Shown piece by piece: positions 1 to 13,075 of a DNA stretch of 25,733 bases. The notes below the pieces were generated by a model that searched no databases, was not told the DNA's origin, and saw only the letters and a list, made by a program, of their open reading frames with translations. The stretch lies in IMG/VR virus record IMGVR_UViG_2606217117_000004; one strand, written 5' to 3'. Position numbers and translations under genes: made by a program. The first letter of the stretch is position 1; each line of letters begins with the position of its first letter. The DNA comes from a virus (Duplodnaviria; Heunggongvirae; Uroviricota; Caudoviricetes).

Positions 1-93
1 ACTCAGTTGCTGGTCTTTCTGACGGAGGGCTTCAGCCTGCTCAGAGAGCAACCTTTCCAGCTCTGCGATGCGAATGAGGTATTTCTGACTCAT
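1..93 (-). CDS. IS66-family transposase (Orf3/TnpC), N-terminal 31 codons only
   Basis: Reverse complement of 1..93 translates to MSQKYLIRIAELERLLSEQAEALRQKDQQLS, the typical IS66 transposase N-terminus; ATG at 93..91; continues past the window edge. Confidence 0.75.
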   Translation of the reverse strand, partial: MSQKYLIRIAELERLLSEQAEALRQKDQQLS

Positions 94-123
94 GACCGTT
101 TTTATAATGCGGTCAGGAGTTTT

Positions 124-474
124 TTACAACATTGTCAGTGAGTTACGGCTGGATGTTTTTGGCTGACGCCAGTCCAGCTTATCGAGGAGCATTGCCAGTT
201 GCGAGCGGGTAATGGATACCTTGCCGTCACGTACCGCAGGCCAGATAAACTGGCCTTCCTCCAGGCGTTTGGTGAACAGGCACAGACCATCAGCATCAGC
301 CCAAAGAATTTTGACGGTGTCACCCCGTCGGCCACGGAAGATAAACAGGTGACCGGAGAAGGGATTATCATTCAGCACATGTTGTACCTGTTCTCCCAGT
401 CCGTTGAAGGATTTACGCATATCGGTAACGCCGGCAACGAGCCAGATACGGGTACCTGATGGGAGTGAGATCAT
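124..474 (-). CDS. IS66-family Orf2 (IS66-type TnpB)
   Basis: 116-aa ORF MISLPSGTRIWLVAGVTDMRKSFNGL... matches the conserved IS66 orf2 product. Confidence 0.8.
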   Translation of the reverse strand: MISLPSGTRIWLVAGVTDMRKSFNGLGEQVQHVLNDNPFSGHLFIFRGRRGDTVKILWADADGLCLFTKRLEEGQFIWPAVRDGKVSITRSQLAMLLDKLDWRQPKTSSRNSLTML

Positions 475-896
475 CTTCCCCTCCCGGTCAGTTCACGGAT
501 CAACACTGTGAGCAGCTCTGGCGATGGATTTTCCAGCGTCATGTTACCGTGACGGAATTCCACCTTGCAGGAACTGGCACTGACTCTGGTCTGAGTGGAA
601 GTGGATAAAGACGGCGCAATGGCCGCCACAGGTTCTTTCTGCTCATCCGGCGTTATTTCTACAGGTAATAATTCAACGCCAGTGTCAGAAGAGGTCGTTA
701 CCGGAAGACGCCGCGAAACACGCCCTTCGTTCTGCCAGAGCCTGAGCCATTTGAAAATAACATTATCATTGACGCCATTTTCACGTGCAATCTGTGCAAC
801 ACAAGCTCCAGGTTGTGATGCCAGTTCCACCATACGAAGTTTGAATTCATTCGAATAGTTTTTACGAGGTTCTTTTCGCCAGTCCTGTAATTCCAT
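471..896 (-). CDS. IS66-family accessory protein Orf1 (TnpA-like)
   Basis: 141-aa ORF MELQDWRKEPRKNYSNEFKLRMVELASQPG... recognised as IS66 orf1; stop overlaps the orf2 start. Confidence 0.8.
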   Translation of the reverse strand: MELQDWRKEPRKNYSNEFKLRMVELASQPGACVAQIARENGVNDNVIFKWLRLWQNEGRVSRRLPVTTSSDTGVELLPVEITPDEQKEPVAAIAPSLSTSTQTRVSASSCKVEFRHGNMTLENPSPELLTVLIRELTGRGR

Positions 897-910
897 ACTT
901 AGATGTCCGT

Positions 911-2002
911 CTATATCAGATGGGCGTCTAAGTTACCAATTCTCGTCTGATGGCTACATACGGCGGTCAGTTTACGCTTACCCTCAATTGCAGATAATCT
1001 TTGTCTTAATTCTGCGTTTTCTTCTTCCAGTGCTGTTATCCTGTCGTCTGACTCTCTGGCTACCTGAACAAGCAAGCCAGTAACACCAGAATAATCTACA
1101 GTGTAATACCGTTCACCTTCTTCGCCTTCAGATCCGCTACCACCGTCCCTATATTTTATCGTAGAGCCTACGGACTCTGGAATTGCTTCTAAGGCTTCCT
1201 GTGCGATAACACCAGCGTAAGGCATCCCGTTTTCTTTAAGCGTGTATGTATAACCATTCATCTTACGGATGCGATTGGTTGCATTATCAATCACCTGAAT
1301 ATTATCTTTCAGGTCTCGGTCAGAGGTCTGGTTAAATGCGGTCGCTTGACATGCACCATTAACAGCAAATGCATATGTGTCATCTGTTTGTTTTTGACCG
1401 AAGAATATAAAAGCCCCACCATCTACACCAACTTCATAAACAACCGGACGGCTAGAATTGCCCCACAATTTAGCAGTAACGCCAGCGTGAGCGGTTCCCT
1501 GTGTGTTTAGTGTCATGGTCGAACCATGATTAGCATATTTGATCTGTAGTGTGTCTGTATAATCAAATTTAATCAGGGCATTATCTACACGATCCCCATA
1601 GGACATGAGGCATTTACCCATTTTCAAATAACCAGCAGTGCCAGGGAAAATTAAAGTTCCTCCGTAAAGATCACTAAAGTCCCAAAAGATACCTTTTGTC
1701 CCGTTATGTGTGACGATCCTCGTCATTGTATCTTTAGTACCATCAATATTTTTTCTGGTATATATATCACTATAAGCGTTTTCCGTTTCACCAGTCTTAT
1801 TTGACAAGTGAATCTTACCGCTAAATATAGTTCCAGTGGTCGGCAATGCCTTTTGATCATAGATTACATTGCAATAACTATTCCATGTTGTTTTATTGTC
1901 TACATATGATTTTGTTGCATAGCTTCCTTGATCAGTTTTTAGTTTACTAACATCGGATTTTAGCGTTTTGATGTCATCAGGAATTACTGTTTTTGTAACC
2001 AT
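911..2002 (-). CDS. Distal tail fibre protein with C-terminal intramolecular chaperone (peptidase S74-like) domain; 3' end replaced by IS66 sequence
   Basis: 363-aa ORF with GGAG ribosome-binding site 7 nt upstream. C-terminal SDRDLKDNIQVID...GYTYTLKENG...coiled coil resembles the auto-cleaving chaperone domain of tail fibres and endosialidases. The last ~24 codons (GKRKLTAVCSHQTRIGNLDAHLI) are read from the IS end. AT-rich codon usage. Confidence 0.6.
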   Translation of the reverse strand: MVTKTVIPDDIKTLKSDVSKLKTDQGSYATKSYVDNKTTWNSYCNVIYDQKALPTTGTIFSGKIHLSNKTGETENAYSDIYTRKNIDGTKDTMTRIVTHNGTKGIFWDFSDLYGGTLIFPGTAGYLKMGKCLMSYGDRVDNALIKFDYTDTLQIKYANHGSTMTLNTQGTAHAGVTAKLWGNSSRPVVYEVGVDGGAFIFFGQKQTDDTYAFAVNGACQATAFNQTSDRDLKDNIQVIDNATNRIRKMNGYTYTLKENGMPYAGVIAQEALEAIPESVGSTIKYRDGGSGSEGEEGERYYTVDYSGVTGLLVQVARESDDRITALEEENAELRQRLSAIEGKRKLTAVCSHQTRIGNLDAHLI

Positions 2003-2014
2003 TGTCTTACTCCA

Positions 2015-2284
2015 TTAAGCCCATGTCCTTACATGCTGATCTGTCGTAATGAAAGGCATTAAAGAAGATATGTTTTTACTGCCATCAACAATCCTCATGT
2101 TTACGAAAAAACCACCGCGATCAATGCCTGTACATCTTTCGTTTTCTGGCTCCTCGTAATCAATAATGCAGCCAATAACATCAACAAGAACCCCATTTTC
2201 TTCTTCAAGACTGAACAGGCCACTGTCATATACAATTGCGTTAAACTGTTCTCTGTTATCGAATCGTAATGTTATATCCCGCAT
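2015..2284 (-). CDS. Hypothetical small acidic protein (89 aa) between the two fibre genes
   Basis: ORF whose ATG overlaps the stop of the upstream fibre gene (TAATG), indicating translational coupling. AT-rich; no family recognised. Confidence 0.45.
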   Translation of the reverse strand: MRDITLRFDNREQFNAIVYDSGLFSLEEENGVLVDVIGCIIDYEEPENERCTGIDRGGFFVNMRIVDGSKNISSLMPFITTDQHVRTWA

Positions 2285-4638
2285 TATACGTATTCCTTAA
2301 GCTGCGTATCTGACAATGCTCTGTTCCAGAAACGGAGGTTTTTTATATGACCATTAAGGTGTCGTAATCCTGTCGTCGTTTGCCCCCCGATACGAATCAC
2401 GGCTGCTTCACGAATATATTTCCATACTGTTTTGGTTTCAGTGCTTATATTCTTATTTGCAAATGAGCATGTCATGCCGTCAGCCTTAACCCTGAATCCC
2501 ATAACGAGATCTCTTACTCCGCATGACTCATATACACGCCGGTTAGCCCCGCCTATATCGCAATACGAATAACCATCCTGACTGATAGTTCCAGAAGAAC
2601 CAAACCCCATAATAAATGGGCCTCCGGACTGGTGATTTTCTGAATCAATGACACGCGGTGCAGCATTATGAGAAATAAACCAGTTTTTATGGACTTCCAC
2701 CATGAACGTAAAAGGCATGGTATACATATTTTTCATCAGCGGAAATTTACATAAATCTGATGCACGAGTCGCTGGCTCTGTTGTCGTTATGATAAAGGAA
2801 GTTGCACAAGCACCATACTCGAATTGCGGGGTGGTTACTTCTATCCAGTCACCTGTTGCAAAAGCCCCCACTGCTCTGTCGGCTGCAATTTGCAGCTGCG
2901 TACCAACCATTCCCCATTCTGGCAGACATTTCAGTGTTGCCTGAAAATATATCCATCCACTACCAGGGTCGATTTCAAAGTTTGCTGTTAATAGCTGGGC
3001 ATTACCACCCGTAATTTGTAGTTCATGAGTCTGTAATGACAAATAGGCGTCACAAAGGAAAGTGTATCCTTCCGAGTTATACCGTTCAAAACGGATACGT
3101 GCGCGAACATTGAGATCACTTCTTACCCTGAACGACGCGGTAACATACGGACCTTTACTGTACTGATCATCGCCAGTCACATCTATGCCTTTATTACCAG
3201 CAACTGTGCATATATTTCTCCCTGTTGTCGTTCCTGCTATCTCACTTCCTACTGTGAAACGTCCATATTTAAACTCAAATTCATCTGTTGATGATGTTAC
3301 AGATATACCACCGCTTTTATTCCACGCATCAGGATTAAAACTATTTACGAACATGTTTGTTCGCTGATTCTCTATCAGCAAACCATATTTTTCAAAACGA
3401 GGAACGTTATTCCCTGCCACGGTAATATGCCCGGACTTATCAATATACGTTGCTGATGAAGCGCGGCTAAATTGGCATATGCCATTAACAGGCATTGTTA
3501 TTTCATCACTGCCGATGGTTATTGTTTTATAGCCCGGGGCATACCCTGTTATCGCTTCCAGAGAATCATTCAAGGGTAGCCAGATATCAGGAAGCGGAGG
3601 GACTGAAGCAGGATCAGCGGCATCTTCTGCAATCCGGGCTGCATTCTCTGCTCTTGTTGCGGCTGACGTTGCTTCTATCTCGCTGGCTGCTGCTTTTGTT
3701 TCACTCGTCTTTGCGTTAGTTTCACTGGTTTTTGCAGCTTTTTGGCTATTAGCTGCCGCACTTGCAGAACCAGCTGCGGCACTCTCGCTTTGGGCCGCTG
3801 CATCCTGACTGTTTTTTGCCGCAGTTTCGCTGGCTTTGGCATTCGTTTCGCTGGTCTTCGCTGCCGTCTGGCTGGACTTTGCGTTAGTTTCACTCGTCTT
3901 CGCAGCTTTCTGGCTGTTAGCCGCAGCAGTTGCTGATCCAGCTGCTGAAGTCGCAGAACCGGCTGCTGCGCTCTCGCTTTCAGCTGCTGCAGCCTGGCTG
4001 TTTTTTGCCGCAGTTTCACTGGCTTTAGCATTCGTTTCGCTGGTTTTCGCTGCCGTCTGGCTGGACTTTGCGTTGGTTTCGCTCGTCTTTGCTGCTGTCT
4101 CGCTGTTTTTCGCGTTGGTTTCTGATTTTTTAGCTGCTGTCGCGGAATTTGCCGATGCAGTCTGCGAGGCCGCTGCCGCCTGTGCGCTGTTAGCTGCATT
4201 CGTTTCTGAGGTTTTCGCCGCGTTCTTCGATGATGCCGCTGCAGTTTCGGATTTCTTTGCCGCCGCTGCGCTCTGAGAGGCAGCTTCAGCGTTACGTGCT
4301 GCTTCTTCCACCATAGCCTCAAAACGGCGTAATGCCTCCGGCATGACATCCTCTTCCGTCATGGCACCGAGAAAATCATTCAGCGTCCCCGGCTTAGAAT
4401 CTTCATACACGGTGATGGTCCCGGCATGTGAAGGCGGAAAACCTTCAACCAGCAGGGTGACGTTGTACTGGCCATACTCAACATCCATGCTGTAACGCCC
4501 GGCTTCATCCGGATTTTCAGAGGCCACCGTGTTCACCAGTACCGTGGTGCTGTTACGCTTTGCCTTCAGTTGAATAGTGCAGTTCTGTATTGGTTTTCCC
4601 GCACCATCTTTCAGCACACCTGAAATCTGTACTGCCAT
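2284..4638 (-). CDS. stf: Side tail fibre protein: lambda Stf-like N-terminus, Ala/Ser/Thr-rich repeat shaft, lectin-like (ConA/LamG-type) C-terminal domain
   Basis: N-terminus MAVQISGVLKDGAGKPIQNCTIQLKAKRNSTT... matches lambda Stf from memory. Likely start is the ATG at 4638 (GGAG upstream); the ORF track starts at a GTG at 4644. C-terminus ...GLRHLNGHIKNLRFWNRALSDTQLKEYV resembles Laminin_G_3 / ConA-like lectin domains. Confidence 0.8.
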   Translation of the reverse strand: MAVQISGVLKDGAGKPIQNCTIQLKAKRNSTTVLVNTVASENPDEAGRYSMDVEYGQYNVTLLVEGFPPSHAGTITVYEDSKPGTLNDFLGAMTEEDVMPEALRRFEAMVEEAARNAEAASQSAAAAKKSETAAASSKNAAKTSETNAANSAQAAAASQTASANSATAAKKSETNAKNSETAAKTSETNAKSSQTAAKTSETNAKASETAAKNSQAAAAESESAAAGSATSAAGSATAAANSQKAAKTSETNAKSSQTAAKTSETNAKASETAAKNSQDAAAQSESAAAGSASAAANSQKAAKTSETNAKTSETKAAASEIEATSAATRAENAARIAEDAADPASVPPLPDIWLPLNDSLEAITGYAPGYKTITIGSDEITMPVNGICQFSRASSATYIDKSGHITVAGNNVPRFEKYGLLIENQRTNMFVNSFNPDAWNKSGGISVTSSTDEFEFKYGRFTVGSEIAGTTTGRNICTVAGNKGIDVTGDDQYSKGPYVTASFRVRSDLNVRARIRFERYNSEGYTFLCDAYLSLQTHELQITGGNAQLLTANFEIDPGSGWIYFQATLKCLPEWGMVGTQLQIAADRAVGAFATGDWIEVTTPQFEYGACATSFIITTTEPATRASDLCKFPLMKNMYTMPFTFMVEVHKNWFISHNAAPRVIDSENHQSGGPFIMGFGSSGTISQDGYSYCDIGGANRRVYESCGVRDLVMGFRVKADGMTCSFANKNISTETKTVWKYIREAAVIRIGGQTTTGLRHLNGHIKNLRFWNRALSDTQLKEYV
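3700..4190 (-). repeat. Intragenic tandem direct repeats (~186-bp unit, about 2.5 copies) in the stf shaft
   Basis: Near-identical nucleotide blocks start near 3814 and 4002, with a partial copy near 3700. They encode repeated KTSETNAKSSQTAAKTSETNAKASETAAKNSQ...SESAAAGSA...NSQKAA units. Confidence 0.7.
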
Positions 4639-4646
4639 ACTCACTC

Positions 4647-4677
4647 CACAAATAAAAAAGGCGCCATTGCTGGCGCC
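4647..4677 (-). terminator. Intrinsic terminator between J and stf
   Basis: On the minus strand: 7-bp perfect stem GGCGCCA / TGGCGCC with GCAA loop (4660..4677), followed by TTTTTTATTT (4650..4659), directly downstream of the J stop. Confidence 0.6.
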
Positions 4678-4698
4678 CGTATTGGGGTTATAAATATT

Positions 4699-7600
4699 TC
4701 AACGGATACTGATACCGGAAGCAGCTTTTTTGGTCACAATCACCGTACAGTCTGTGATGTTACCTGCGCCCTGATTGCCTTTCTGGAAAATCTTAAACTC
4801 CAGAGTGACGTTACCACCACCACTCGGCATATCAATAACCGCACTGTAACTACCGGGAATGGCTCCTTTAGTTTCTCTGGATGCGATTAATACGCCATTT
4901 TTGCGAACTTCAAAACCATAACCCGTGTATCGCGTACCTCCCGGGTTATTACCGCTCCCCGGATCGTCATACGCCACACCGTTAAAAATAATGGGCGGAA
5001 TAATGATTTGGCGGTCAAAGTTATGATCATCGTAAATGGTGACTGTAACCGTCCCGTTTGGTGTTTCCGTGTTACCCCACGTACCAGCCTTTTTCGGGAA
5101 TGATTTGGATACAGTTTTAACGAAGTCACCTCTGACCTGGTTCGCCTCCAGCATGCCCTTAATCGTACAGTTTTCATTTACCGTGACATTATTGAGCGTC
5201 CCGGAGTTCGCATTCACGTTACCGCTGATATCAGCATTTCTCGCCGTCAGCCGCCCGTCCGGTGTCAGGGAAAATGCCGGAGGATTACCGCCACTGGTAA
5301 TGGTGGGAGCCGTCAGATACTTCAGGAACACTTCGTTCATGAATATCTGGTTGCCCTGCGCCACAAACATCGGCGTTTCATTCCCGTTTGCCGGGTCAAT
5401 AAACGCGATACGGTTAGCGGCAACCAGGAACTGGCTCAGTTTGCCTTCCTCCGTATCCTCCATGCTGAGGCCAAGCCCCGCGACATAATGTTTGCCGTCT
5501 TTGGTCTGCTCAATTTTGACGCCCCACATGGCATTCCATTTATCGTTGGCGTCCTTCCACTCTTTCGAAAACTCCTCCAGTTTGCTGGCGTTATCCTCCG
5601 TCAGCTCGACTTTTTCCAGCAGCTCCTTGCCGAGATGGGATTCGGTTATCTGGCCTTTGAAAAAATCCAGGTAACCTTCCGCATCATCGCTCGCCCGACC
5701 GACGGCCTCCACGAATGCCGATTTGCCAACGGTGTTCACACTGCGAACGTAAAAATAATAATCATGGCCCGGCTTAATATTGATACTGGCAGCTATCCAG
5801 TACAGCGCCGTGCCAAGATAGCGGGCTGTGGTTTCAACCTGCCTGATATCGGTAATCCGCTTTTCCGAGAACCAGAACTCAAACTGTACCGTCGGATCAT
5901 AAACGGCAAGATGCGGCGTGGCGGTTATCTGAAAATAGCCCGGCGTCAGCTCAATCCGAGATGGCGCTGCCGGTGCGGCAATCCGGAACGATACCGACGC
6001 CGGATCGCCCTGCTGCCCCCAGGCATTTGCCGCCCGGACTGTCAGCCTGTAGTTTCCCAGCGCCAGTTGCGTGAAGCGGTATGTGGTTTCCGTCGTCCGG
6101 GCCGTGCTGACCAGCCGCTCACTGCCGTCATCCGCTGCCACGGTCAGGCGAAGCATAAAGCTCACCCCCTTCACCACCTTCGGCGTATCCCAGCGCGCCA
6201 GCACCTGGTATTCCCCGCTGTCTGCAGTGACTTCTGCGGTCAGATGCTGCACTGCTGGCGGCGTGACACCATTCACCGTGCCGCTCTGGTCACCGTCAAA
6301 GTGCGCCCCGTTATCCACGATGGCTTCTTTCTCCGGTACATGCTGCACGGCAGTGATGGCATACGTACCGTCATCGTTCTCACGGATACTCACACAGCGG
6401 AACAGGCGCTGGCGCAGCGTCGGCAGCTTCAGCCCCCACACGCTGTACTCGGCAACGCCGTCAGGAACACGGCTCACTTTTACCTTCACGCCGTCGGTGA
6501 CGGACTGAACCTCCACGCTGACCGGACTCCCCTGCCCGTCAACCAGGCTTATCAGCGTGGTGCCGGAAGATGGCAGCGTGATTTCACGGTCGAGCGTCAG
6601 CGTCCGGGTCTGGCTGTTTACCGCCAGCACGCGCCCGCCGGTGCTGATACCGGCATAGTCATCATCGCAGATTTCAATGACATCGCCCGGTACATGGCGA
6701 AGCCCTTCGGCACCCACGCTGAAGTCCACGGTCTGCGTTTCCAGCAGTTCTGTTTTAATCAGCCACAGCCCGGCGCGATGTGCCTGCCCCCGGCTGGTAC
6801 AGCCAAAAGCATCCATCTTCGTGACGCTACGACCGTAACGGGCAATGGCCTGCGTGTCCTCCACAAGCTCTGTCGCCGTCTCCCAGCCGTTATTCGGGTC
6901 AATCCAGTTCACCTCAACGGCATTATGGCGGTCCTTCAGGGCGCTGAAGCTGTAGCGGAACGGCGCACCATCATCCGGCATCACCACATTACTGCGGTTA
7001 TAGGTCCACACCTTATCCGACGGTCGGTCCTGCACGAACGTCAGCGTCTGCCCGTTCCATACCGGCATACAGCGCATCGCCGAGCAGAAATCACTGAGCA
7101 CATCCCACGCCTTGCGCTGTGTGGTCAGGTACGCATTACAGGTGATGCGCGGCTCCGTGCCGCCAAAACCGTCCGGCACCGACTGATCGCAATGCTGGCC
7201 GATGACATACAGCGCCCATTTGTCCACATCCGCCGCACCAAGACGTTTCCCCATGCCGTAGCGCGGATGGGTCAGCATATCCCACAGACACCAGGCCATG
7301 TTGTTGCTGTATGCTGGCTTAAACGTTCCGTCCCAGATACCGCTGTATTGCCGCGTCTGCGGGTTATAGTTCGACGGCACCTGCAGAATACGCCCGCGCA
7401 GATGATAATTACGGCTCACCTGCTGGCTGCCGAACTGCTCCGAGTCCACCTGCACGCCGACCAGTGCCGTGTTCGGGTAGCACTGTTTCACATCGATGAT
7501 TTCGGTGTATGACGACCAGAGCGTTTTGTTCTGCAGCTGGTCTGTGGTGCTGTCCGGCGTCATCCTGCGCATCCGGATACTGAACGGGCGCGGCGGCAGG

Positions 7601-10188: not shown

Positions 10189-10517
10189 CAGTTCACCACC
10201 TGTTCAAACTCTGCGCTGAACTCAACACGCAACATACTGACCTGCGACGACCATTTTGCGCAGGTCACCTTTATCTGCCGCCACTCATAAGGCGGCGTCC
10301 ACAGAAAGGATTTCCAGCCCCCGTGCTCTTCCAGAAACGACTCCAGTACCGTGGCCTCCTCACGGGGGACAGAAAGCGTCACGCTGTACGTTTTCAGGTT
10401 GGCATTCAGCCCGGCAGGCGCTCGCTGAGAATAGCCATCACCAAAGCGCACCTTTCTTACAGAAGGGACCGAAGCCACATCCATACCGGGTTTCACTTTC
10501 CAGCGGAAGGTCTTCAT
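10188..10517 (-). CDS. M: Tail tip protein M
   Basis: 109 aa, lambda gpM-like; overlaps both neighbours. Confidence 0.9.
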   Translation of the reverse strand: MKTFRWKVKPGMDVASVPSVRKVRFGDGYSQRAPAGLNANLKTYSVTLSVPREEATVLESFLEEHGGWKSFLWTPPYEWRQIKVTCAKWSSQVSMLRVEFSAEFEQVVN

Positions 10518-13075
10518 CGTCCACCTCCGGAGAACAGGCCACCATCACGCATCTGTGTCTGAATTTCATCACGGGCACCCTTGCGGGCCATGTCATACAC
10601 CGCCTTCAGAGCAGCCGGACCTATCTGCCCGTTCGTGCCGTCGTTGTTAATCACCACATGGTTATTCTGCTCAAACGTCCCGGACGCCTGCGACCGGCTG
10701 TCTGCCATGCTGCCCGGTGTACCGACATAACCGCCGGTGGCATAGCCGCGCATCAGCCGGTAAAGATTCCCCACGCCAATCCGGCTGGTTGCCTCCTTCG
10801 TGAAGACAAATTCACCACGGTGAACAATCCCCGCTGGCTCATATTTGCCGCCGGTTCCCGTAAATCCTCCGGTTGCAAAATGGAATTTCGCCGCGGCTGC
10901 CTGAATGGCTGTCCCGCCTGACGCGGATGCGCCCCCACCAACAGCCCCGCCAATGGCGCTGCCGATACTCCCGACAATCCCCACCATTGCCTGCTTAAGC
11001 AGAATTTCTGTCATCATGGACAGCACGGAACGGGTGAAGCTGCGCCAGTTCTGCTCACTGCCGGTCAGCATCGCCGCCATATTCTGCGCAATACCATCAA
11101 AGGTCTGCGCGGCTGCACTTTTAACCTGCGACATACTGTCCGTGGCGCTCTCTTCCCACTCACTCCAGCCGGACTTCAGGCCTGCCATCCAGCTCCCGCG
11201 AAGCTGGTCTTCAGCCGCCCAGGTCTTTTTCTGCTCTGACATGACGTTATTCAGCGCCAGAGGATTATCGCCATACTGTTCCTTCAGGCGCTGTTCTGTG
11301 GCTTCCCGCGCTGCCTGCCGGTCAGTCAGCCCCCGGCTTTTCGCATCAATGGCGGTCCGTTTTGCCCGTTGCTGCTGTGCGAATTTATCCGCCTGCTGCG
11401 CCAGCGCGTTCAGGCGCTCCTGATACGTAACCTTGTCGCCAAGTGCAGCCAGCTGGCGTTTGTACTCCAGCGTCTCATCTTTATGCGCCAGCAGGGATTT
11501 CTCCTGTGCAGACAGCTGGCGACGTTGCGCTGCCTCCTCCAGTACCGCGAACTGACTCTCCGCCTTCCACAAATCCCGGCGCTGCTGGCTGATTTTCTCA
11601 TTTGCTCCGGCATGCTTCTCCAGCGTCCGGAGTTCAGCCTGAAGCGTCAGCAGGGCAGCATGAGCACTGTCTTCCTGACGATCGCCCGCAGACACCTTCA
11701 CGCCGGACTGTTTCGGCTTTTTCAGCGTCGCTTCATAGTCCTTTTTCGCCGCCGCCATCAGCGTGTTGTAATCTGCCTGCAGAATTTTCCCGTCCTTCAG
11801 TGCCTTGTTCAGTTCTTCCTGACGGGCGGTATATTTCTCCAGCGGCGTCTGCAGCCGTTCGTAAGCCTTCTGCGCCTCTTCGGTATATTTCAGCCGTGAC
11901 GCTTCAGTATCGCTCTGCTGCTGCGCATTTGTGTCCTGTTGACTCTGCTGTTCAGCCTTCTTTCTCGCGGCTTCAAGCGCAAGACGGGCCTTTTCACGAT
12001 CATCCCAGTAACGCGCCCGCGCTTCATCGTTAACAAAATAATCATCCTTGCGCAGACTCCAGATGTCGTCCGCTTTCTTAAACGCAGCCTCTGCCTTAAT
12101 CAGCATCTCCTGCGCGGTATCAGGACGACCAATATCCAGCACCGCATCCCACATGGATTTGAATGCCCGCGCGGTCCTGTCTGCCCAGGTCTCCAGCGTA
12201 CCCATGTTCTCTTTCAGGCGGCGGGTCTGGTCATCAAACCCTTTCGTCGCGGCCTCGTTCGCCGCCTGCAATGCCCCGGCTTCATCGCCGGAACGCTGCA
12301 ACTGAGCAACATACGCAATCTGCTCCGCCGTCACGTTATGGAACTGGCGTGCCATCGCCGTCAACCCCGACGTCGGGTCTGTGGTCAGCTTCCCGAAGGC
12401 TTCAGCGACCTTGTCCACCTCCACACCGGATGCAGAGGAGAAACGCGCCACACTCTGGCTGATGGACGCAATCTGAGCCTCACCGCTTACTCCCGCCTTA
12501 ACCAGTGCGCTGAGTGACTCGCTGGTCTGGTTAAACGTCAGCCCTGCCGCCTGCCCGGCTCTGGACAGGACCAGCATGCGATCTGCCGTCAGACCCGACT
12601 GATTGCCGGAAAGGACCAGCGTTTTGTTGAAATCGGACAGGGTTGAGTTGCCCTGATACCAGGCATACGCCAGCGCACCGGTCGCCACCGCCAGCGAGGT
12701 GGCCCCGACCATCGGCAGGGTGATCGCACCGGCAAGCCCCCTGAACATGGGGATCATCCCGCCGAAGGAGTCCTTCACCTGACCACCCTGTTGCAGCAGG
12801 ATCAGCCACGGACTTTGCCCGCCTGCAAGCTGCGTGGCCACGTCGGTGAACTGTGCAGGCAGCATACGCATGGCGGCTTTATACTGTCCGACGGAAATCC
12901 CCGCTTTCTGTGCAGCCAGCGCCTGCCGGTTCATTGACTGTTCAACGACTGCCGCTGTTTTTTTCGCATCACTTTCCGTACCGGAAAAATGACGCCTGAC
13001 TCTGGCCATCTGCTCGTCAAATCTGGCCGCATCCAGACTCAAATCAACGACCAGATCGCCTACCGGTTCAGCCAT
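10514..13075 (-). CDS. H: Tail tape measure protein H
   Basis: 853 aa, same length as lambda gpH; coiled-coil-rich with Gly-rich C-terminal region. Confidence 0.92.
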   Translation of the reverse strand: MAEPVGDLVVDLSLDAARFDEQMARVRRHFSGTESDAKKTAAVVEQSMNRQALAAQKAGISVGQYKAAMRMLPAQFTDVATQLAGGQSPWLILLQQGGQVKDSFGGMIPMFRGLAGAITLPMVGATSLAVATGALAYAWYQGNSTLSDFNKTLVLSGNQSGLTADRMLVLSRAGQAAGLTFNQTSESLSALVKAGVSGEAQIASISQSVARFSSASGVEVDKVAEAFGKLTTDPTSGLTAMARQFHNVTAEQIAYVAQLQRSGDEAGALQAANEAATKGFDDQTRRLKENMGTLETWADRTARAFKSMWDAVLDIGRPDTAQEMLIKAEAAFKKADDIWSLRKDDYFVNDEARARYWDDREKARLALEAARKKAEQQSQQDTNAQQQSDTEASRLKYTEEAQKAYERLQTPLEKYTARQEELNKALKDGKILQADYNTLMAAAKKDYEATLKKPKQSGVKVSAGDRQEDSAHAALLTLQAELRTLEKHAGANEKISQQRRDLWKAESQFAVLEEAAQRRQLSAQEKSLLAHKDETLEYKRQLAALGDKVTYQERLNALAQQADKFAQQQRAKRTAIDAKSRGLTDRQAAREATEQRLKEQYGDNPLALNNVMSEQKKTWAAEDQLRGSWMAGLKSGWSEWEESATDSMSQVKSAAAQTFDGIAQNMAAMLTGSEQNWRSFTRSVLSMMTEILLKQAMVGIVGSIGSAIGGAVGGGASASGGTAIQAAAAKFHFATGGFTGTGGKYEPAGIVHRGEFVFTKEATSRIGVGNLYRLMRGYATGGYVGTPGSMADSRSQASGTFEQNNHVVINNDGTNGQIGPAALKAVYDMARKGARDEIQTQMRDGGLFSGGGR

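Follow-up and report, generated by a model that had tools for sequence, protein, structure and literature searches.

What is the role of a small gene that lies between two fibre genes of a lambdoid prophage? The question is raised by the virus record IMGVR_UViG_2606217117_000004 (IMG/VR; Caudoviricetes), a stretch of 25,733 nucleotides (nt) that was analysed over its whole length and is called the window here. It corresponds to the late region of a lambdoid Escherichia coli prophage, in which the terminase, portal and tail genes and the gene of a J-like tip protein are followed by a fibre locus on the minus strand. It is 100% identical to two RefSeq chromosomes, and its fibre locus matches the induced phage PhiR11_1. 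In this locus, an open reading frame (ORF) encoding an acidic protein of 89 amino acids (aa), gene S, separates a Stf-like side tail fibre gene (gene A) from a second fibre gene (gene B). Gene S is found here to be tied to the C-terminal lectin module of A and to be independent of B, and it is tentatively read as encoding a co-translated partner of that module, acting as an assembly helper, a cap or a resident subunit. The functional tie to the lectin module is new, whereas what was already known of S is a nameless protein family, PHROG 1361.

Gene S is a conserved gene of an unnamed phage family

Gene S runs from 2284 to 2015 on the minus strand, which the original prediction for this locus had not stated, with its ATG at 2284-2282 and its TAA stop at 2017-2015. 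The acidic 89-aa ORF and the overlap of its start with the stop codon of A, both described in that prediction, were read directly in the sequence: the TAA of A lies at 2286-2284, and one base is common to both genes (TAATG). The ATG of B follows at 2002, 12 nt past the S stop (TGGAGTAAGACA), and the good ribosome-binding site expected there is present as a GGAG 7 nt upstream of that ATG. In addition, a consensus scan of the minus strand detected no site between genes A, S and B that is comparable to the terminator-like hairpin preceding them (described below). The overlap of A and S and the lack of terminator-like sites between the three genes bear out, as far as sequence can indicate, the predicted coupling of S to the fibre genes.

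The S protein (10.2 kDa, isoelectric point (pI) 4.38, 16 Asp and Glu versus 8 Lys and Arg) has no hydrophobic segment, and no signal peptide or membrane segment was found in it. It matches PHROG 1361 ('unknown function') over its full length (residues 1-89 on profile positions 1-92 of 92; E-value 1.9e-30, 105.8 bits). The original prediction had recognised no family. This holds in that nothing named was found, but an unnamed phage family does exist; since PHROG 1361 is without name, function or literature, membership in it is silent on mechanism. Searches of S against NCBIfam and PADLOC returned nothing relevant and zero families, respectively, and only a spurious 18-residue match to another family, with no match to Caudo_TAP, was obtained in Pfam-A at an E-value of 1 or below.

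A profile search of 5.8 billion proteins returned 75 clusters of S homologues from phages or prophages of E. coli or Salmonella, all stand-alone proteins of 88-96 aa except for a few truncated records. The profile search was needed because a word-indexed search with the single sequence gave only four relatives, all truncated or artefactual. An exhaustive HMMER pass (phmmer) over 1.8 billion cluster representatives added nothing, returning only three real S clusters, and a scan of genome contigs (one genome per species) gave no S match. With tblastn, relatives of S were found in 108 sequenced phage records, and carriers of these relatives include the BASEL model phages Bas25 (VogelGryff) and Bas32 (IrisVonRoten). 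Among 5,426 complete E. coli genomes, 141 carry the type of S seen in the window and 990 carry the commonest type, which is 93 aa long. Among the matches listed, every RefSeq genome annotates S as 'hypothetical protein', and the BASEL records of IrisVonRoten and SelmaRatti label it 'tail fiber protein'. The papers on AKFV33, phiLLS, PH204, DT57C, phage-37 (Epseptimavirus) and BASEL contain no statement on gene S.

S is conserved over its full length at 25-40% identity across phage families, with pairwise ratios of nonsynonymous to synonymous substitution rates (dN/dS) of 0.16-0.39 within subfamilies. The ORF is free of truncation and frameshift in 118 of 118 loci, a set made up of the loci that passed a full-length hidden Markov model filter. 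Thirteen positions form an invariant core (M1, D3, L6, F8, I37, G38, P51, G58, N62, R64, I65, R86 and W88). The shortness of the protein might suggest a chance frame or the remnant of a longer gene that is not translated, but this explanation is effectively refuted by the conservation pattern, including dN/dS values well below 1, the intact ORFs and a conserved start context. S is clearly a protein-coding gene under constraint, and it is conserved in every informative related fibre locus.

Several database matches were set aside or need care. The phmmer matches P0007 and P0008, which are cadherin and Ig-like repeat proteins, were judged spurious and driven by repeats. P0005, in which the C-terminus of A and S appear fused, was rejected as a natural fusion, the record being a frameshift-ridden translation. 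P0003 is a truncated S of 64 aa whose residues 1-39 match the window and which bears the misleading inherited name 'CP4-44 prophage; predicted disrupted hemin or colicin receptor'.

Gene S is tied to the lectin module of the upstream fibre

Gene A (2284..4644, minus strand) encodes 786 aa from a GTG start, or 784 aa from the ATG annotated in PhiR11_1, where the product is named a side tail fibre. The protein consists of a lambda-type N-terminal anchor (PF08400 phage_tail_N, residues 3-133, E-value 6e-68; also phrog_1419), a shaft of Ala-rich repeats and, at the C-terminus, a lectin module of tandem ConA/LamG-like jelly rolls (residues 386-786; 2287..3489, minus strand). Residues 423-628 match NF048003 (GTA_spike_fiber, 'phage head spike fiber domain') at 48 bits against a curated cut-off of 36, which together with the ConA-like jelly-roll fold assigns A to the proteins with a head-spike-fibre/LamG lectin module, and Laminin_G_3 is found at the module end in all 16 aligned representatives. 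An AlphaFold2 model of residues 386-786 is a compact all-beta monomer (predicted local distance difference test score (pLDDT) 78, predicted template modelling score (pTM) 0.80). The nearest solved relative of this module, and not of S, is the head spike fibre Rcc01080 of the Rhodobacter capsulatus gene transfer agent (RcGTA; PDB 6TB9, NF048003), a weak match in the PDB. Rcc01080 binds capsular polysaccharide, and each spike has a single subunit of it (PMC7296036). A is thus a trimeric shaft, each chain of which ends in a monomeric carbohydrate-binding module. No Peptidase_S74 match (Pfam) and no intramolecular chaperone domain were found in A, and no Tfa gene accompanies it.

The order of a large fibre, S and a second fibre with Peptidase_S74 recurs in PhiR11_1 (lambdoid), AKFV33, KookSpook, WP85 (T5-like), SA126VB and phiG7 (Seuratvirus), and S lies directly after a fibre gene in all 118 loci, which come from lambdoid prophages, T5-like phages and Seuratviruses. 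The A proteins have in common only their last ~450 residues, at 30-60% identity, and their N-terminal anchors fit their own phage type. In 38 of 38 loci found through S, the upstream gene ends in a homologous ~450-aa module, preceded by anchors of the lambda Stf, T5 LtfA or Seuratvirus type and, in one case, belonging to a protein of 1325 aa. Conversely, a search through the module found S directly after it in 79 of 79 informative loci. The lectin module is the part of A whose presence predicts gene S. The two genes are also closely joined, with the S start at -4 or -1 nt from the A stop in 86 of the 118 loci, at 0-1 nt in four and at 9-10 nt in 28. A programmed frameshift that fuses A and S was rejected because those 28 loci combine the gap with an independent Shine-Dalgarno sequence for S.

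This distribution bears on the possibility that S is a hitch-hiker unrelated to the fibre, such as a moron, a regulator, or an anti-defence or exclusion factor, that settled at a recombination-prone spot. Some prophages carry S next to the attachment site as their last gene, where morons are typically found, and Pfam and NCBIfam hold no recognisable family for it. However, S has never been found away from a module gene, its start overlaps the stop codon of the fibre gene in most loci, and it lies inside the late fibre operon of virulent T5-like phages and Seuratviruses; these features, together with the lack of a PADLOC match, a signal peptide or a membrane segment, make such an origin very unlikely.

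The association extends to remote relatives. Aeromonas phage AhSzq-1, a prophage of A. caviae and a metagenomic SU10-like phage each encode the module as a separate protein of ~335 aa, and the ORF of 96-104 aa that comes next overlaps the module gene by 4 nt and aligns with S. These ORFs and S have in common an M-[KI]-D-x-x-L-[KR] start and a C-terminal Trp, and the Aeromonas copies also keep G-[YW]-x-x-N-x-R. In none of the three remote loci does a B motif follow the S-like ORF. The module and S-like ORF occupy L122:4001-5319 in AhSzq-1 and L125:3001-4292 in the SU10-like phage; in the latter, the module lies a few genes past the major capsid gene, a position reminiscent of the RcGTA relative in its head spike.

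The charges of the two proteins offer a weak hint from sequence at where a contact might lie. The median pI is 4.1 for S (58 unique proteins) and 9.4 for the C-terminal 165 aa of A, values compatible with contact between S and the LamG domain. The same pattern is cited for another explanation, in which S is a transient cap or inhibitor that masks the glycan-binding module until virion release and keeps progeny off the debris of lysed hosts. A strongly acidic protein beside a mostly basic carbohydrate-binding domain would suit such a mask, as would the absolutely conserved C-terminal R-x-W-A/M of S in a probably flexible tail, and a 'transient chaperone cap' has been proposed for other fibres (PMC10579305; cited in PMC11990801). 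However, the argument is purely inferential, the charge pattern fails in AKFV33-type phages, and no feature found here separates a cap from a permanent subunit. A role confined to transient masking is considered quite improbable.

Gene S does not depend on the second fibre

Gene B (983..2002, minus strand; phrog_4563, E-value 1.7e-198) carries a Peptidase_S74 intramolecular chaperone domain at residues 227-278 (1169..1324, minus strand; PF13884, E-value 3e-13), and B therefore has a folding aid of its own whereas A has none. Its first 15 residues (MVTKTVIPDDIKTLK; 1958..2002, minus strand) form a motif with the consensus M-x-T-x-T-x-I-P-x-D-I-x-x-L-K, which is conserved between otherwise unrelated B proteins, with a spacing of 9-12 nt between S and B. 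In relatives of B from phages without S (phiKT, Dhillonvirus, phiEco32-like and rV5-like phages, and a segment embedded in DT57C LtfA), homology begins only at residue ~16-49, so that B looks like an add-on docking to the end formed by A plus S. Because the motif is found where S and the lectin module are present, the sequence comparison suggests that it is probably both a docking peptide and a recombination joint.

These observations raise the possibility that S is a structural joint or adaptor at the end of A, a docking site for the 15-residue motif of B in a branched or two-segment fibre, in the manner of gp35. The gene order A-S-B with its close spacing, and the absence of the B motif from related fibres in S-less phages, fit this explanation. 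So does the finding that the sequence cluster of S tracks the variant of the first 15 residues of B best (Spearman 0.84), the body of B reassorting freely. Published modelling, as presented for the fibre complex of IrisVonRoten, likewise sets the B homologue Gp24 on the A homologue Gp22 (PMC11990801).

The loci without B weigh against a joint. The 118 loci divide into 84 with the B motif after S, 14 that are cut off by a contig edge and 20 without B, which span six combinations of A-domain clusters. One prophage without B has a complete structural module and carries S as its last gene before ynaN/zntB. Purifying selection on S is not relaxed where B is missing (dN/dS 0.16 without B versus 0.16-0.39 with B), and the invariant core does not differ between 46 unique proteins linked to B and 11 without B; no position conserved only in the B-linked group was found. 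A protein that serves as a joint would be expected only where a proximal and a distal fibre are joined, but S is kept in these 20 loci and in the three remote phages. Moreover, the correlation between S and the B peptide is compatible with either co-adaptation or simple linkage over 10 nt, and would be expected from that linkage alone; branched fibres of the DT57C type function without S; and the description of the Gp22-Gp24 complex in PMC11990801 is silent on the S homologue. S is independent of B, and an adaptor that exists for B is considered unlikely.

Reassortment also bears on specificity. S clusters pair with several module clusters. This speaks against a Tfa-like chaperone specific to one allele and implies that any contact with A would be made through conserved features. 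S and its conserved flanks, namely the C-terminal strand motif of LamG and the N-terminal motif of B, therefore behave as a constant joint between two variable receptor-binding cassettes. The receptor-binding parts are far more variable than S and combine freely with its different types; as judged from these sequences, S is unlikely to be a specificity determinant. The proposal that S is a chaperone, adaptor or host-range factor is thereby narrowed: S is tied to the lectin module of A rather than to B, which is missing from at least 20 of the loci, and a role in specificity has become unlikely.

The zntB-adjacent prophage mentioned above has accessory genes on the opposite strand inside its tail module (L128:6599-7643 and 10200-10627), annotated as the type VI secretion system-associated TagO and a ParE-family toxin-like protein.

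Predicted fold of S and comparison with known fibre accessory proteins

An AlphaFold2 model of S from an alignment of 68 sequences, of modest quality (pLDDT 75, pTM 0.68), has the order strand-helix-strand-strand-helix, which predicts a small ferredoxin-like alpha/beta fold, with a C-terminal tail of low confidence that holds the conserved R-x-W-A/M. A PDB sequence search with the S family profile found no relative; NHL-like 'Pizza' repeats and RNA polymerase Rpo7, which appeared in this search, were rejected on non-significant per-stretch scores. With Foldseek against BFVD, a set of viral predicted structures, the S model matched a few uncharacterised proteins of 64-105 aa from uncultured phages (E-values 6e-4 to 4e-2), among them A0A6J5PXP1, A0A6J5L008 and A0A6J5MYS6. 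In sequence S is unlike Tfa-type or other known fibre chaperones and adaptors, and its predicted fold appears to be unlike theirs as well.

One parallel is with the Tfa-type proteins (lambda Tfa, Mu gpU, P2 gpG and T4 gp38; Caudo_TAP), which, like S, are encoded by a small gene directly 3' of a fibre gene and are expressed in coupling with it. In lambda, tfa sits after stf, in the same position as S. Tfa-type genes also move with the distal part of the fibre between phages, and S shows the same adjacency and co-inheritance. In contrast, Tfa is about twice as large as S, the presumed client of S is a monomeric module of the ConA/LamG type rather than a trimeric tip, and S types do not co-vary with the alleles of that client.

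A second parallel is with jointed fibres, such as DT57C LtfA/LtfB, T4 gp34-gp35-gp36 and IrisVonRoten Gp22/Gp24, in which, as here, the gene of a distal fibre comes after that of a proximal one and the distal fibre is attached non-covalently. T4 gp35 joins the half-fibres, and gene 35 lies between fibre genes as S does. However, S also occurs where no distal fibre follows, and no homology links it to gp35; DT57C has neither S nor the lectin module. IrisVonRoten gp22, gp23 and gp24 are direct homologues of A, S and B. In the account of this phage, a 'galectin-like domain' protrudes from the proximal fibre Gp22 and the second fibre Gp24 is attached to it (Humolli et al., PMC11990801). The figure legend there names the proximal fibre Gp22 and the text names it 'Gp23', which is probably a slip for Gp22, and gp23 is not otherwise discussed in the passages that describe these fibres.

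The fibre chaperones of Alteromonas phages A5 and V22 resemble the present case in that a fibre and a small downstream gene form a host-recognition module common to unrelated phage families, within which the dependence of the fibre on the small protein varies between phages (PMC10579305). Those chaperones resemble intramolecular chaperone domains, which the predicted fold of S does not appear to do. Among gene transfer agents, we know of no S-like gene reported for RcGTA.

Proposed role of S

The reading that S is a co-translated partner of the lectin module of A, which we favour while regarding it as somewhat short of probable, would work as follows. S would be made from the A transcript by termination-reinitiation or by closely coupled initiation, so that its amounts would be tied to those of the fibre. 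Its contact with the monomeric ConA/LamG-type module, probably at the basic last domain, would involve features that are conserved and non-allelic, and there S would help the fibre to assemble, cap it, or stay in place as a small subunit at the fibre end. In A-S-B cassettes, the end of A formed by the module plus S would give B its docking platform, with the 15-residue motif at the N-terminus of B as the contact, which would make B an optional add-on and not the reason for S. Besides the synteny, this reading is favoured by the finding that A is the only one of the two fibres without a built-in folding aid, B having Peptidase_S74, and by the precedent in Alteromonas phages, where a fibre is transferred jointly with the small cognate gene downstream of it from one phage family to another, unrelated one (PMC10579305).

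Several points weigh against this reading. More distant modules occur without S (L123, L126 and L127). The basic character of the last domain of A is lost in AKFV33-type phages (pI 5.4-6.9), and the only proteomics on a carrier of S, that of AKFV33, reported four large gel bands, including the A homologue, an analysis blind to a 10-kDa protein. A single cluster of LamG alleles is combined with six S clusters whose mutual identity is below 60%, whereas classical Tfa proteins follow the fibre tips that they serve. The S cluster is instead tracked best by the B peptide, which fits the adaptor role too. Finally, the single subunit of the RcGTA spike and the confident AlphaFold2 monomer imply that a Tfa-style trimerisation chaperone is not obviously needed.

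A bolder and rather doubtful reading combines several of these elements. S might represent a new class of partner protein, a universal, allele-independent end piece of lectin-type receptor-binding modules that serves as a reversible plug, a plug-and-play socket or both. As a plug, it would use its invariant C-terminal Trp and acidic face to block the glycan-binding module reversibly; as a socket, it would let interchangeable second fibres dock by their 15-residue peptide. If true, a conserved joint between recombination-prone receptor-binding cassettes would be a built-in device for shuffling host range across unrelated phage families.

That S should be a fibre accessory protein would not surprise a phage biologist. 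If lectin-tipped lateral fibres need S in order to be built, capped or extended, however, fibre swaps made to engineer host range would also have to include S, published fibre models without S would be incomplete, and the known chaperones and adaptors would gain a family with no relation to Tfa, gp38, gp57A and intramolecular chaperone domains. Carriers of S include candidates for O157 biocontrol such as AKFV33. PhiR11_1 and the BASEL phages can be cultured on K-12, and IrisVonRoten has a clear phenotype that depends on the O16 O-antigen.

Other features of the fibre locus and its relatives

A terminator-like hairpin (8 bp with 6 G-C pairs, followed by a T run) was found by the consensus scan at 4659..4678 on the minus strand, between the stop of the J-like gene and the start of stf (gene A). 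It is the 5' edge of the stf-S-B unit and may partially insulate the fibre operon from the main late transcript. Unlike lambda, the window has no lom-like gene between the J-like gene and stf. Within gene A, nested tandem repeats with periods of 21, 42 and 189 nt (3691-4141) encode the Ala-rich 'KTSETNAK...' shaft of Stf, and they create long spurious ORFs in other frames or on the other strand, for example at 3675..4349 (minus strand) and 3836..4276 (plus strand).

Among the distant modules without S, the L123 locus (3093-5793) encodes a LamG-only protein of 181 aa followed by a protein of 393 aa that opens with the module start motif (PDFWLPLNDSL...FTRSTTATYVDKSG). The arrangement is split or duplicated, and no S-like ORF is present there.

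In DT57C, ltfA (L041:3480-6710) carries a T-shaped fibre segment that is fused in frame to the LtfA shaft from about residue 530 ('NNLSDLADRAAAWLNVRPIG'). An apparent match of the first residues of B inside LtfA is an alignment artefact, the real homology starting at 'NNLSDLADR'. This fused segment and the separate protein B of S-carrying T5-like phages represent two alternative solutions at the same locus.

The end of an IS66-family insertion sequence (IS) element occupies positions 1..982 of the window on the minus strand (tnpA 896..471 and tnpB 474..124, from ORF translations) and lies in the 3' end of B. The identity of the element is supported by a RefSeq 'IS66-like element accessory protein TnpA' under the match, and other genomes match the window only from position 982. 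The insertion lies six codons before the natural stop of B and the element continues past the window edge; the last 6 residues of the protein are replaced by 23 residues derived from the IS. Residues 1-340 of 346 are intact, and it is over these residues only that B is 100% identical to its intact 346-aa counterpart in PhiR11_1 (XSB41488). In this strain the insertion may have put the C-terminal intramolecular chaperone region of B out of action.
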